From a virus, in IMG/VR virus record IMGVR_UViG_3300026488_000021, positions 1 to 64,000 of that record: a stretch of 64,000 bases of DNA. The stretch is one strand, 5' to 3'. The notes beneath the pieces were generated by a model. The model searched no databases. It had not been told where the DNA came from and worked only from the letters and a program-made list of their open reading frames with translations. The stretch's first letter is position 1, and the number at the start of each line of letters is the position of its first letter. Position numbers and translations under genes: made by a program. Positions 1,302 through 52,005 of this stretch are shown one piece after another.

Positions 1302-1790
1302 ATGGCAAAAAATGCTATGGATGTTGTAAAAGCTATCATTTTTAATTACATAAAAAAACAAGAGGAAAATAATATCCCTAAGGACCAATATGAATATCCA
1401 ACTCAATTGAAAATACAAAAGTTATTGTATTTTGCTCAAGCAGCATTTTTGAGTTTATTGAATAAGCCTGCTTTTAAAGAGGAAATAGAAGCTTGGCAGT
1501 ATTGACCTGTTGTAAGAGAAGTTTATAATGAACTAAAAAAATTTTGAAATAATCCTGTTAAATTTGACTCAGCTGATCTAAAAAAAGCTTATTCTAAGTT
1601 TTCAGATAAAGAAAAGGATATTATAAGTTTTATAAATGATACTTTTTGAAAATATTCTGCTTCTAAACTTGTGGAGATAACTCATAAGCATAAACCTTGG
1701 AAGGAAGCTTTTGAAAGAGATGAAACAGTTATTTCTAAGTCTACATTACAAAAATATTATAAGCCTTTATTTGAATTTGATCTAAAATAA
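1302..1790 (+). CDS. Panacea-domain (DUF4065/SocA-like) antitoxin
   Basis: TQLKIQKLLYFAQ...IEAWQY(TGA=G)PVV...KYSASKLVEITH..KPW hallmark motifs; 162 aa with TGA=Gly. Confidence 0.88.
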
Positions 1791-2236
1791 TGGGGTTTAG
1801 ATATAACGAGGAAATAGATTTTCCAAAAATTGTTGAGAATCCAGAGGAGAAAGTTGTAATAAGTTTAATTTGTTTAGCAGATGATTGAAAAAGTTTCTCG
1901 AAACAAAATGCAAATACAATAAAGGATTTTGTTAATTGGATAAGAAAACTTGAAGATATTACAGTTCAAGAATTTGTAAGTAGAAGTAGGGAGAAATGAT
2001 GATTTATAAAGGAACAAGAGAAACAACCAAATTATAAGTTTTTAAAATGATTAAGTAAAACCTTTAAAAATCATAAAATAAGGACTGTTGAAATCCAATG
2101 TTATAAGAATTCGAATTATTGACATTGTCATGTAGATAATAACAAATCCGGAAAACTTATAAGAGTTTTTGGAATATTAGTGTCGAATAAATTCTGTATT
2201 CTTGAGATAGATTGGAATTGAAAGAGAAATCATTAG
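1790..2236 (+). CDS. Putative cognate toxin (RelE-like RNase fold suspected)
   Basis: Translationally coupled (TAATG) to the Panacea gene; C-terminal HCHV...RVFGIL..NKFCILEIDWNG..NH pattern resembles RelE-like toxins. Confidence 0.55.
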
Positions 2237-28913: not shown

Positions 28914-28941
28914 TTGAAAAATAAAGACAAATGACTATACT
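28914..28941 (+). promoter_or_regulatory. sigma70-like promoter TTGAAA-16-TATACT
   Basis: Near-consensus hexamers upstream of ATG 28983, after hairpin 28889-28906. Confidence 0.55.
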
Positions 28942-28982: not shown

Positions 28983-30449
28983 ATGAAACACGATAGAGAA
29001 GTCTTATTGCGCGTAAAAGAGTTAAACGAACAAGGATACAAATCTAAAGAAATTAAAAAAATAATTGAAGAAGAATTATGAATTGTTGTTAGTGATAGAA
29101 CAGTGAGATGGTGGTTAAAAAATAAAATTGATGAACTTGAAAACGATTTAAAAAAGTTAAATGATGAAATAGAAAGCAGACAGACATTTGAGATTATAGA
29201 GAATGAAGATTGAAGTGTAGACATTGTAATGTATAGGAAAGTATGAGAAGAAAAACATAGGTATGTGTTTCCGTTAGAATTAATAGTTAATATATTTAAG
29301 GATTATTCTAGATATGGATGAAATCTATCTTGATTACAAGTTCAAAGGAAATACAACTTAAAACCTGAAGCTTGGCAATTACTTAAGAATAGATTAAACT
29401 TGTACAAAGATAGTGATGTAATTCCTGATTGGGCGTTGGAATATGTAGAATGAAAATGGTGAGAGGATAAGGTTGAAGAAGTGATTAGAGATGTAACATA
29501 TGAAGCTGTACAGAATAAATACAAGAATAAATTAGTAAAACAATATGAAAGACAAAAAGATAGAGAATACGAGAAAGCTATCAAAAAACTATATGACTTA
29601 GAGGAGTTTTTATGAATGTTAAAAGAATACCTGGAATCTTATAACCCTGAGAAAATTATTACAGCTGAAGATTTAAACAAACTACACAGACAAAACTTAG
29701 ATAAACATAATAACGATACATTATATACTGCAATAACTGATATACATATCGGTAAAGAAGATACAGATAAAATTATAGAAAGAATAAAACAGGTTACCGA
29801 ATATGTTTGTAATAGACCAGAAAGAAATGTTAAGTTGTTTATATTATGAGACATACTTGAAACTATTGTAAGATGATGAATGCATGTATGACAGACAGAT
29901 GATATGGATTGACCATATGGATTTGATTTGATAATGAAAACTGTTGAAGTATTTGAAGAGATGTTTGTTAGAATATATAGCAGTTGAAAGAAACTAGATG
30001 TATATGGTATAACTTGAAATCACGATCGTATTGGTCAAAAAGATAGCTTTGAATATACAGGGTGACTTATTATTTATGAAATGATAAGAAGATGACTGCA
30101 ACAACTAGAAATAGAAATTAACTATCTAAGAGAAGTTTGGAATACAGTAGAGACAGATGATTTTACCTTTATACTTCAACATTGACATATTTGATGAACT
30201 AAGAGAAGATTGTCTGATATACTATGGGAATATGGGAACTCACAGAAATATAATATCTTACTTCAAGGTCATATACATTCTTGAGTACTTGAAGAATGAA
30301 ATAGAAAATGAATGAGGATTATTGTGCCATCGCTAGCTGGTGATTGAATGTACAATAAAGCCTTATGAATCAGTAGTAGCACCTGATTTGTAGTAATTAA
30401 AAAATGAATTAAAGATAAGCCCGAGGTGAGTTTTATTTATTTAGATTAA
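28983..30449 (+). CDS. Calcineurin-like metallophosphoesterase with N-terminal HTH
   Basis: TDIHIG, LGD, GNHDR, HGH and GHIH motifs; 488 aa. Confidence 0.85.
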
Positions 30450-30452
30450 TAG

Positions 30453-30704
30453 ATGAAAACAATAAAAATAAGAGATTATGTAAACTGAGCAAAGGTAGTG
30501 TGAAGTTGGGAAACTTGAAAAAAGATTAGAGAAGACATTGACAAATACGACAAGGCCATACTTGATTTCGAGTGAATAGAAACTACATGTACTGCTGTAT
30601 TTAATAATATGTTATACGACTTTGATAAAATAAAAGATAAAGTTAAATTTAAAAACTGTAATGATTATATTAAAAAAATTATAATAGAAGTAATTAATTT
30701 ATAA
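30453..30704 (+). CDS. STAS-like (DUF4325-type) protein
   Basis: GS.ETGKKIREDI......LDFEGIE....F.N.... Confidence 0.6.
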
Positions 30705-30721
30705 CTTTAAATAATTATAAA

Positions 30722-31099
30722 ATGGAGTTAAATCTAAACCTATCTTCCTGAAGATTAATAGAATACAACTCAGATAAGGAACAACTAAGTTTGTTGGAGA
30801 TAGATAAAAACGAAGATTGAAATGAAGAATTAAATGTGTCGACATATAATACTGATGATGTGTCAGATCTAACTGACTTGATATATGATTTAACATATGA
30901 GATGTATGATAAGTATTGAGAAAATTATTATGTTATAAAGTGATGCTGACATAAGTTAGAATGTGAATGATACTGAGACAAGAAAAATAAAAGGTGAGTA
31001 TTATTAAATATCTGAAGGTTGTTATATGAATATTGGAATTGAGAATATGATGAAAACGAGACTATAAGTTATATAAAAAAAGAATTAAGCTCTGACTAG
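30722..31099 (+). CDS. Hypothetical acidic protein
   Basis: 125-aa open frame ending at the terminator. Confidence 0.5.
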
Positions 31100-31114
31100 A
31101 CGTCAGAGTTTTTT
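31090..31114 (+). terminator. Intrinsic terminator ending the + strand arm
   Basis: CTCTGAC-TAGAC-GTCAGAG followed by T6. Confidence 0.75.
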
Positions 31115-31122
31115 ATTTAAAT

Positions 31123-31149
31123 AAAAAAACCTTGCCGCGATGGCAAGGT
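31123..31149 (-). terminator. Intrinsic terminator ending the - strand arm
   Basis: Minus strand ACCTTGCC-ATCGC-GGCAAGGT followed by a T run. Confidence 0.75.
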
Positions 31150-31316
31150 ATCGCCTGGACTCATACTGAGCACACAGGACTTTTGCATAGATTGCTGGGG
31201 CCTCACGCCAGCGTAGTGTAGCAGAGCCTGTTACTTTATTGCCTTGGCTAGTAGGCGAACAGGATACTACACTTTCGGGGAGACCTCCTCGCTAGCCACA
31301 GCTCCCCAAGACCTGT
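31128..31316 (-). ncRNA. Putative structured ncRNA (~190 nt, multiway junction with 7-bp kissing loops)
   Basis: GC-rich intergenic island; four stems and complementary loops UGGCUAG/CUAGCCA; a G-U pair fits the minus strand only. Confidence 0.65.
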
Positions 31317-31326
31317 ATTTATATAA

Positions 31327-31578
31327 TTATTCTTTTTTCTTTTTCAAGTCTTTTTGTTTTTTCTCGTATTCCCTTTTTATTTTTTCCTCCAATTCCATTG
31401 TAAGCGATTCCTCTAATTCCGCTACAAATTGTCAGTACGATTTAGCTTCTTGAATCAATGAAGATACAACGTTGTATGCATCCAAACCATAACCTTTTAA
31501 AGCCATGTTCATAAGTTCTTGGATCAATCTAAATCCTTGTTCGTTTACAATGATGATTGGTTGTTCTTGTGTATTCAT
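31327..31578 (-). CDS. Hypothetical protein
   Basis: 83 aa, MNTQEQPIIIVNEQG... Confidence 0.55.
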
Positions 31579-31752
31579 GTTATATTATTAATTTATAAAA
31601 GCAATATAATAACCAGCTATAAGCTGGCGAAAAGAGATTAGAAGAAGAGAATGTGATTGTTGACACAGGTTTACTTTTGTATTCTTTCTTTAAATAGAAG
31701 GGTTCCTTGGATTAGCTAGTTAGATTAGAATGATAGAAACTTGATAGAAATA

Positions 31753-31826
31753 CGGAGCTGACGGGATTCGAACCCGCGACCTCCTGCGTGACAGGCAGGC
31801 GTTCTAGCCAGCTGAACTACAGCTCC
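31753..31826 (-). tRNA. tRNA-Asp (GUC), CCA not encoded
   Basis: GGAGCTG acceptor, D-arm, CCTGC-CTGTCAC-GCAGG anticodon arm, GGTTCGAATCC T-loop, discriminator G. Confidence 0.95.
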
Positions 31827-31856
31827 ATAATGTAGGGATATACCCTACAAAATAAT

Positions 31857-32111
31857 TTACCTAATCATTTTATTAAAGAATCAAATCAAATCATCAAATG
31901 AATTTATCTCAATAACTTCAACATCTGGATTAGGTTTATCTTCACCATCTGTGTACGGATCTTCTTTATTAGTACAGTGTTCAATTAACTTACTTCTTAA
32001 CTCCCTAAAGAACATATCCCAGAATGTATTCCCGTCTTTGAATTTATCATGGTATACTTTAGACCAGATTCTCATTTCTTTAATTACTTGATTGATTTGT
32101 TTGTTTGTCAT
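31857..32111 (-). CDS. Hypothetical protein
   Basis: Track ORF extended through TGA to TAA. Confidence 0.55.
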
Positions 32112-32544
32112 TATTATTATTTAACGAATAAAATAATAAGTATTGCCTATCTTTATAACTTCACTATCCTCAGTTCAGTATCAATAATTAAGTGGTCAAG
32201 TAAATTGTCAAGTATTTGATTTAATTCAATTAAAATATAAATATTCTCAAGATTCTCATAGATTGTCAATATAGAAAGTAGATCATTCTTGAACATCTTG
32301 TAATTTTCTAATACTATTAATTCATATACTACAATATATTTCAACAGAAGTATTATTAATTAAATAAGTATAATCATCTTTTAGAATTAATGTTTTAGCT
32401 ATAACTTCATGTATATTCAACTCATATCTTATTATTATATCTATTAACTTCATTTTATATACTTTATTATCTACTTTACATATATATAAATTATCTAGTC
32501 ATTTATATATACCTTTATATTTTTCATAAGCTTCTATAAGTTCT

Positions 32545-32979
32545 TTATAATCCATTGTTGTTTTTAGGATATAAATATTCATTCTCTATTCAGTTTATTT
32601 TTTTTATTCAAAGCTTTTTAAACTCCTCTCTATATTTATCAGAGTTAAACAAAGCATCTAACGAAATTAAATCTCAGTTATCTAGTTCAACAAAGAATGA
32701 AGCTCTATCTTCATCATATATAACTGTTCAATAATATGTACCATGTTTTCAATCTAGTAATTCTACTCAGAATGCTATTATATCTCATTCATATATATCC
32801 TTATTATTTTTATCTTGAAATCAAGTAAACAATAATATTTCATAGTCTTGTCTTAATTCATTATCTTTATTAGATACTATTATTGACCATAGCAATCAAG
32901 GATTTACATTCACAAGATCTTTTCACTTGTATACTTTTTTTGTAGCTTTCTCAAATAGAGCTAGTTTAAAGTTTTCCAT
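32545..32979 (-). CDS. YopX-family protein
   Basis: FTGFQDKNNKDIYEGDII motif. Confidence 0.75.
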
Positions 32980-51360: not shown

Positions 51361-51950
51361 AATATAAAAACACGATAAGTCGTGCTTTTATATTTGCGGT
51401 CGACTATATTTTTTTCTGGAGCCTCGACCGCAAGGCTCAACAGGAGTCTTTTTTGTTTAACCGGTGTTTCCCCTCACCGGTAAAACCACCCGTGTAAATA
51501 TATTTAATCCAAGAGGCGAGCCAGGCGGTGCTTTGAACTCGCCCCTTGTTGAATTTAGTTTTTATCCTATCTCGAGCTATAACCAGTAGGCAACTACTCC
51601 TACTGGAAACGCTCGACCACTCGCCCCGTCGGTCCGTTGCTCGTCCACACCAACCAAGCGTAAGCTACGCTACACGCCCAGCCGGTGCTTCATCCAAGCT
51701 GTCCCCCGCTTCGGGGCGGTGGATGCGGAGCCGGAGCCCCGCTAATGTTAAATATCTACCCTTTTAACTGATAAGCAAGGGGTAGGACCAGCCGTCCTTG
51801 CTTACCAGCCCAGCCCAGGAATTGAAACCTATAGGCTGGTAGCAGGTTTTAGCCCCTGCTAGGGCTTTATAAGTATTACGGCTTAATACCGTAACACTAT
51901 CAAGGAACTTCGTTTTAGCCCCTCCGTCGGGGTATCCGTTCCCTGATGCT
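51361..51950 (-). ncRNA. Putative large structured ncRNA or 5' leader (~590 nt) with serial pseudoknots
   Basis: GC-rich island composed almost entirely of stems; the stem mismatches examined become G-U pairs on the minus strand; promoter upstream and U-rich hairpin at the 3' end. Confidence 0.72.
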
Positions 51951-51956
51951 GTTAGT

Positions 51957-52005
51957 AGTATAATCATTTTTTTAAAATTTTCAAGACTTTTTTAAAAAAA
52001 TGATT
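51957..52005 (-). promoter_or_regulatory. Promoter TTGAAA-16-TATACT with a 16-bp perfect inverted repeat flanking its -35 box
   Basis: -35 at 51984-51979, -10 at 51962-51957; AATCATTTTTTTAAAA (51962-51977) / TTTTAAAAAAATGATT (51990-52005). Confidence 0.65.

Follow-up and report, generated by a model that had tools for sequence, protein, structure and literature searches.

A previously uncatalogued structured RNA gene where two gene arms converge in a phage genome that reads TGA as sense

Genomic setting of the RNA gene

The DNA analyzed here (64,000 nt, referred to below as the window) is the first 64 kb of the 82-kb IMG/VR virus record IMGVR_UViG_3300026488_000021, which is estimated to be 75% complete, and the element under study is a gene for a structured RNA on its minus strand. 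Translation with genetic code table 11 yields almost no long open reading frames (ORFs) in the window; when TGA is read as sense, 45 ORFs of at least 150 aa appear in three arms, with TGA reaching up to 16% of the codons in some of them, in a usage that suits glycine (table 25) rather than tryptophan. The phage genome has large-terminase and portal genes, and the host is probably found among the Absconditabacteria or Gracilibacteria, i.e., it would be a bacterium of the candidate phyla radiation.

The leftward arm extends from ~50.2 to 31.3 kb and includes genes for a helicase, a nucleotide kinase-like protein, and a YopX protein, its last ORF before the RNA being one of 83 aa (31578–31327, TGA read as sense). 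The opposing rightward arm closes with an exonuclease (28983–30449), a DUF4325 protein, and an ORF of 125 aa with its stop at 31099; the RNA gene sits mid-genome, exactly where these two arms converge. The original prediction for this locus, made from the sequence letters, had placed the RNA after a stop codon with no gene following it, and this is what was found: the last leftward ORF ends ahead of the RNA, the plus-strand genes converge on it, and no credible minus-strand ORF was detected between 31122 and these genes under TGA-sense translation.

On the minus strand, the locus holds an RNA gene that ends in an intrinsic terminator and contains two helices, P2 and P3a, kept by compensatory substitutions in a relative (Table 1). 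The gene stands out by its G+C content, which is 53.6% for 31125–31316 vs. 27.9% for the window and comparable to that of the nearby tRNA gene, and a 206-nt region containing it folds better than 199 of 200 dinucleotide shuffles (z-score −2.4). All helices, loops, and the terminator listed in the original prediction were verified, every pair being present on the minus strand.

Table 1 Features of the RNA gene and its flank (window coordinates; MFE, minimum free energy)
Feature	Position	Strand	Basis
RNA gene: G+C-rich body, 3' hairpin, terminator, U-run	31122–31316	−	G+C island, fold z-score, cassette in X2, X4, X5
P1 closing stem ACAGG/CCUGU	31316–31312 / 31178–31174	−	pairs present
P2 hairpin GGGGAG/CUCCCC, 19-nt loop	31277–31307 (31307–31302 / 31282–31277)	−	pairs verified, compensatory changes
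UGGCUAG in P2 loop	31292–31298	−	one partner of the proposed 7-bp loop-loop helix
P3 long hairpin: P3a 8 bp, P3b 6 bp, P3c 4 bp; internal loops 2x4 and 1x8	31215–31273	−	pairs verified
CUAGCCA in 8-nt P3 terminal loop	31245–31251	−	other partner of the proposed loop-loop helix
P4 hairpin GCUGG/CCAGC, 9-nt loop	31194–31212	−	pairs verified
Variable single-stranded linker, P4 to 3' domain	31181–31193	−	two substitutions (31191, 31185) and a 1-nt insertion following 31183 in X2, X4, X5
Conserved 3' hairpin G.CCUG.G.GCU / AGU.C.CAGG.C, variable tip; contains 3' strand of P1	31153–31180	−	identity with L004
Intrinsic terminator: 8-bp stem, loop AUCGC, U7	31122–31149 (hairpin 31149–31129)	−	terminator prediction
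Promoter-like TTGAAA (31347–31342), 16-nt spacer, TATATA (31325–31320)	31320–31347	−	homologous to two L004 copies
Upstream cassette edge, recombination joint common to two relatives	31354	.	X2 and X4 contig joints

Natural variants and covariation

Logan contigs of four other runs from three studies, two of the runs being recorded as hydrothermal-vent metagenomes, were compared with the window over 30400–32600. The RNA was carried by three of the four, here called X2 (a 1095-nt contig covering 30453–31354), X4 (648 nt, 31150–31354), and X5 (202 nt, 31062–31261). Among the sequencing runs listed as carrying the stretch, none is recorded as RNA. For the 143-nt body of X2, 13 substitutions are listed. 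In its P2 helix, the pair 31305–31279 has changed from G-C to A-U and the pair 31303–31281 from A-U to G-C, and in P3a the pair 31270–31218 has gone from G-C to A-U, all three changes being compensatory. Moreover, G31276>A converts a possible U31308.G wobble to U-A, and C31315>U converts a C-G pair of P1 to U.G. Apart from one P2 pair taken up below, the other four changes lie in the P4 loop or in the linker ahead of the 3' domain, as does a 1-nt insertion.

When 13 random substitutions were simulated on the originally predicted model, which had been fixed before any variant was seen, at least three compensatory pairs arose with p ~3e-4, and at least four pairs hit on both sides with p ~5e-6. 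The compensatory pairs and their low simulated probabilities indicate that P2 and P3a are real, selected helices. The same substitutions break the GGGG/CCCC helix of the MFE fold, whose window structure goes from −72.5 to −54.1 kcal/mol on the variant, and for this reason the predicted P2 is preferred over the thermodynamic alternative.

G31201>A in the P4 loop occurs in X2, X4, and X5 and is the sole P4 change seen, the stem being unaltered, and no difference is listed in the 3' hairpin in any of the three. For P1, P3b, P3c, P4, and the loop-loop helix, the variants show no informative change. The three runs also have A31141>C in the terminator loop; the pairing of a GCGAU just ahead of the terminator with this loop (AUCGC), which had been part of the original prediction, is not supported, as the change is uncompensated and the contact has no counterpart in the related contig L004 described below.

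Architecture and loop-loop complementarity

Besides the pairs in Table 1, P2 can be extended by U31308.G31276 and U31309-A31275, and P3 is also seen in the MFE fold. The energy of the nested model is −50.1 kcal/mol, with about −9.7 kcal/mol more for the loop duplex, compared with −72.5 kcal/mol for the MFE fold, in which GGGG (31307–31304) pairs with CCCC (31200–31197) and the P2-loop segment GCUAGCG with CGCUGGC (31213–31207).

The terminal loop of P3 is ACUAGCCA, and the CUAGCCA within it, which uses all but one of its bases, can pair with UGGCUAG of the P2 loop at every base. Among 20000 loop shuffles, 67 (0.3%) gave Watson-Crick complementarity of 7 nt from one loop to the other, and the two heptamers are partly palindromic. 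The complementarity claimed originally stands, and covariation speaks neither for nor against a loop-loop helix, both loops being unchanged among the listed variant differences. We regard pairing of the two loops as the most likely arrangement suggested by this complementarity, and rank pairing within one molecule ahead of pairing between molecules.

The closing stem P1 fared less well. Its pairs are present, as predicted; as a helix it is not supported, because the 3' hairpin conserved with L004 uses the CCUG assigned to P1 and so competes with it, and because a transcription start near 31314 (see below) would shorten it. This makes P1 the least secure helix in the model, and a string of hairpins may describe the RNA better than a four-way junction.

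Homologue and family searches

The RNA matches no known family. With Rfam 15 at the gathering score, only a tRNA-Asp (31827–31752) was matched in the whole window, and at E ≤ 10 over 30600–32000 nothing meaningful fell on the RNA, a tRNA model being hit only at 31753–31826. The models of the phi29 packaging RNA (pRNA, RF00044), of riboswitch classes (lysine, purine, cobalamin, SAM, and others), and of ROOL, GOLLD, and manA gave no match at E ≤ 10. The likeness to phi29 pRNA drawn in the original prediction does not extend to family membership, given this result, the different type of genome, and the mid-genome location. ARAGORN found no tRNA or transfer-messenger RNA (tmRNA) in the RNA at the default or the 80% threshold; at 60% it returned only an implausible model with a 74-nt intron, and such an identity was rejected.

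Relatives are scarce. A blastn search against 50,697 phage records gave no match, pattern scans of viral contigs with the 3' segment, both loops, the P2 loop, or the P3 apex gave 0 matches each, and a scan of genome contigs for the 3' segment also gave 0. No viral relatives were found with the probable capsid protein as query, and an antisense ORF over the loops, translated and compared with a protein database, recovered no variants. With the neighboring exonuclease as a handle, one close locus was found among metagenome contigs (L004, protein 84% identical), one distant locus among viral contigs (L003, 30% identical), and none in genome contigs. A covariance model of the RNA (R1) detected no paralogue in the 82-kb record and no match in the L003 record. 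The RNA is a real and previously uncatalogued structured RNA gene, so far known from one narrow phage lineage.

No stretch complementary to the RNA occurs elsewhere in the 82-kb genome, and the translation-start regions of 103 ORFs pair with its loops or 3' segment no better than with shuffled queries. Of the trans-acting RNA proposed originally, the non-coding, structured minus-strand RNA is upheld and base pairing in trans is not, as far as translation starts of the phage are concerned.

Several other identities were considered and rejected. A small peptide from the AUG at 31188, whose 23 codons would run across the 3' hairpin, has UAA as second codon and a 1-nt insertion in X2, X4, and X5. 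The AGGAGGU in the P2 loop was dismissed as a ribosome-binding site, as the sole start that follows it is a GUG with UAG directly after it and motifs of this kind are near-absent in the phage: upstream of 103 ORFs of the 82-kb record, GGAGG occurs 0 times and AGGA 3 times. This near-absence of Shine-Dalgarno-like motifs suggests that initiation in phage and host is independent of them, and it also speaks against a ribosome-binding decoy in the obvious sense. Contig depth over the body equals that of the flanks, and the body is not a multicopy mobile element.

Cassette structure and promoter-like element

The RNA is preceded by a promoter-like element, from which transcription is predicted to start near 31314. 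The related motif TTGAAA-N15-17-TATANT occurs 7 times in the window vs. 1.8 expected, with copies at 28914, 51957–51984 (−), 53186, 24060, and 26563, and copies head the transcription units that start at 28983, ~51.95 kb (−), and 53248; from this enrichment and from the position at the heads of main units, it is probably the promoter consensus recognized in this host. L004 has two TTGAAA-N16-TATATT copies with the same AATAATTATAT core, one before a pair of tRNA genes and one before its own version of the RNA.

Two of the variants mark the upstream edge of the cassette. X2 joins 31354 to 31628, with the 83-aa ORF replaced by 26 nt that on the minus strand form a terminator-like 6-bp hairpin followed by a T-run, and X4 joins 31354 to 31863, so that both the 83-aa ORF and the tRNA-Asp gene are gone. 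The segment 31354–31317, retained in these relatives, carries the promoter-like element, and together with the shared joint this points to a probable independent transcription unit.

At the corresponding locus of L004, the order is tRNA-Tyr, tRNA-His, the promoter copy, a short A+U-rich stretch, the segment AAGUCCUGUGUGCU...GUCCAGGCGAUAC, and a different terminator. This segment is 27/27 identical to window 31182–31148, compared with only 84% identity for the DNA of the exonuclease gene, and its fold is an imperfect hairpin of 9 bp whose tip varies.

More generally, the leftward arm is at its 3' end a mosaic of small cassettes (the 83-aa ORF, tRNA genes, and the RNA), seen at 31354, 31628, and 31863 of the window and at 1700–2010 of L004, which relatives gain or lose at sharp joints, often beside copies of TTGAAA-N16-TATAT(T/A). 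At the convergence point itself, two intrinsic terminators stand back to back, 17 nt apart (31087–31111 on the plus and 31129–31149 on the minus strand), the plus-strand one overlapping the final codons of the 125-aa ORF. Within the region 30453–31099 (plus strand), this acidic ORF is present in every relative seen with the RNA body (the window, X2, X4, and X5), and the ORF for the DUF4325 (STAS-like) protein is present in most of them, one X4 contig skipping it; both are missing from L004, which likewise has no body. A functional link of the two ORFs with the RNA is only a possibility, drawn from a small sample of relatives that are not independent of one another. The leftward arm has at its head a G+C-rich stretch of ~590 nt (51361–51950, minus strand), the second structured RNA by which the original prediction saw the arm bracketed, that has no Rfam match at E ≤ 5 and does not contain the UGGCUAG/CUAGCCA motif.

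Resemblance to a phage tRNA

P2 shares GGAGCTGT and AGGAGGTC, in this order, with the phage tRNA-Asp, with the D-loop heptamer TGGCTAG between them; the ordered pair of 8-mers, taken by itself, arose in 5 of 5000 shuffles. Read against the tRNA, P2 contains GGAGCUGU (acceptor strand and U8), UGGCUAG (D-loop), and AGGAGGUC (variable region) in tRNA order, and the G after the P2 stem resembles the discriminator G73; the RNA differs from the tRNA in having no anticodon arm, T-arm, or CCA context. A gapped local alignment of the whole body is only marginal (13 of 500 shuffles), the block shared with tRNA-Asp diverges in X2, and the similarity to the tRNA-Tyr and tRNA-His of L004 is not above that of shuffles. 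The likeness agrees with the position of the RNA in a tRNA slot, which in L004 is filled by these two tRNA genes.

The tRNA genes of the slot have a feature of their own. The only tRNA of the 82-kb phage is tRNA-Asp(GUC) (31752–31827, minus strand), and at the same locus L004 has tRNA-Tyr(GUA) and tRNA-His(GUG) (1754–1921, minus strand), so that all three belong to the GUN-anticodon (queuosine) group. Such tRNAs are the substrate set of colicin-E5-type anticodon nucleases, and the shared group might indicate that tRNAs are replaced here to counter a defence and not to supply codons.

Discussion

We consider it probable that the locus is a stand-alone gene for a highly structured non-coding RNA of ~170–190 nt. 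Established by the data are the gene, its strand, the terminator, P2, and P3a, and what follows is inference. Transcription would begin near 31314, driven by the RNA's own TTGAAA-N16-TATATA promoter-like element, and the RNA would fold into three G+C-rich hairpins (P2, P3, and P4), followed by the conserved 3' hairpin and the terminator. The P2 and P3 loops would then pair, with P3 bending at its 1x8 internal loop so that its tip reaches the level of the short P2, and the outcome would be a compact, nuclease-resistant particle. With low certainty, the RNA could act by its shape, serving a host or phage protein as decoy or scaffold, and a tRNA-recognizing protein is a candidate partner on account of the blocks shared between P2 and tRNA-Asp, the tRNA genes in the slot of the relative, and the finding of no antisense target in the phage itself.

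Several points weigh against this interpretation. Only 34 of the 45 differences of the X2 contig are listed, the terminal P2 pair 31307–31277 is disrupted in X2 (G-C to U.U), and the variant evidence comes from essentially one divergent lineage. The loop-loop helix shows no covariation, and since at the observed divergence its 14 positions would stay unchanged in 26% of cases, the invariance of the loops is not evidence for their pairing; moreover, the P2 loop can instead pair with the 5' strand of P4, as it does in the MFE fold. The −10 hexamer of the promoter-like element ends in A rather than T and is an imperfect match, and for the RNA its promoter, its two ends, and its stability are predictions from sequence. 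The tRNA likeness was spotted post hoc, ARAGORN sees no credible tRNA even at relaxed thresholds, and the role as decoy or scaffold is conjecture. Furthermore, the covariance model R1 finds no RNA body in L004, which keeps only the 3' hairpin, so the G+C-rich body is dispensable for the L004 phage.

Alternatively, the RNA could be a base-pairing regulatory small RNA, in which the 3' hairpin region (31180–31148) and the terminator serve as seed or chaperone-binding site acting on host mRNAs and the body is accessory or stabilizing. The 3' segment is the most conserved part, being shared in full with L004 despite a different A+U-rich 5' part and terminator and having no listed difference in X2, X4, or X5, and such RNAs typically show this arrangement of a promoter, a short RNA, and a terminator. 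We nevertheless regard this as unlikely, as the translation starts of the phage pair with the 3' segment or any loop no better than with shuffled queries, no complementary stretch occurs elsewhere in its 82-kb genome, and selection on P2 and P3a would be left unexplained. It is more doubtful that the element acts in cis as the 3' end of the leftward operon, with stacked hairpins that guard the mRNA from 3' exonucleases and insulate the convergent units. Its location exactly at the convergence of the two arms would suit this role, and read-through transcripts would end in the RNA, no terminator lying between it and the 83-aa ORF in the window; however, the upstream gene differs or is missing in relatives that keep the cassette and its promoter-like element, X2 has a terminator-like hairpin directly upstream of the cassette, protection requires neither 190 nt nor complementary loops, and L004 needs no more than the 3' hairpin. 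That the element is what remains of a decaying tRNA array, with its G+C content and hairpins derived from tRNA fragments and no function of its own, is very improbable: the ordered blocks common to P2 and tRNA-Asp, the identity of CUAGCCA with the reverse complement of the tRNA D-loop heptamer, and the tRNA genes in the L004 slot would all fit, but the compensatory substitutions show that P2 and P3a are still under selection, at least four haplotypes retain the element with changes mostly in loops, linkers, and matched pairs, and the likeness does not extend to the tRNA-Tyr and tRNA-His of L004 above shuffles. As for a riboswitch or attenuator acting on the terminator, which the original prediction had rightly thought unlikely, it is close to refuted by the missing regulated gene. 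The multi-helix, aptamer-like body ahead of a terminator recalls one, and CCUG (31178–31175) has two possible partners, the 5' end (P1) and CAGG (31157–31154), but no gene follows on the strand, no riboswitch model matches, and the GCGAU/AUCGC pair is lost uncompensated in three runs and missing in L004.

The complementary loops could also act between molecules, as had been suggested by analogy with phi29 pRNA, whose loops pair over 4 nt from one molecule to the next. Like pRNA, the RNA is phage-encoded, of similar size, and equipped with two mutually complementary loops, which match perfectly over 7 nt and use all but one base of the P3 loop. Unlike it, the RNA lies in the middle of an 82-kb genome with terminase-type packaging genes, pRNA being encoded at the genome end of small (~20 kb) terminal-protein podoviruses, beside early genes. 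There are other precedents: in phage-associated manA RNAs of less than 200 nt, seemingly intramolecular complementary loops proved to be intermolecular kissing contacts (10.64898/2026.07.01.735769), and ROOL and GOLLD, likewise phage-associated, as well as OLE form homo-oligomers (PMC12286853). The present RNA matches none of the pRNA, manA, ROOL, or GOLLD models and has a different and simpler architecture. Because intra- and intermolecular pairing are indistinguishable here, because the genome of more than 82 kb is not phi29-like with the RNA at its end, and because L004 has no body, we give only a slim chance to a phi29-type packaging RNA or another self-assembling RNA in which the P2 loop pairs with the P3 loop of the next molecule to form dimers, rings, or cages. 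That the loops pair between molecules at all, the ~180-nt RNA self-assembling head-to-tail into a closed dimer, ring, or cage, is marginally less improbable.

Pairing of two loops has familiar counterparts. Watson-Crick pairs between loops (L2-L3) lock neighboring hairpins together in purine and lysine riboswitches, and in ColE1 RNA I/RNA II, a 7-nt loop is fully engaged in a kissing helix. The present RNA differs from these in having no downstream gene or family match and in the very unequal lengths of P2 and P3, which oblige P3 to bend. In its setting, it resembles the species I and II RNAs of phage T4, small and stable RNAs with no assigned function in or near tRNA genes, where transcription of the tRNA cluster terminates after the species I RNA gene (PMC2330249). 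Similarly, the present RNA is the last unit before a terminator, one gene away from tRNA-Asp, and tRNAs fill its slot in a relative. The comparison is by description only; host, genome type, and probably the fold are different, and the present RNA appears to have its own promoter and not to be cut from a tRNA precursor.

The find is limited to one narrow lineage, and any function is putative. Phage structured RNAs without a known function are few and have repeatedly proved to be unusual machines, as with pRNA motors and the self-assembling manA, ROOL, and GOLLD. If the loops did pair between molecules, the RNA would be a new and very small addition to the emerging class of natural RNA-only assemblies, after pRNA, manA, ROOL, and GOLLD. 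Its small size permits direct synthesis, chemical probing, and cryo-EM, and the phage group it belongs to has offered almost no experimental access, given its sense TGA codons and hydrothermal-vent habitat. Its position in a tRNA slot, together with a hairpin that resembles tRNA-Asp, provides a testable lead to a tRNA-related conflict between host and phage.

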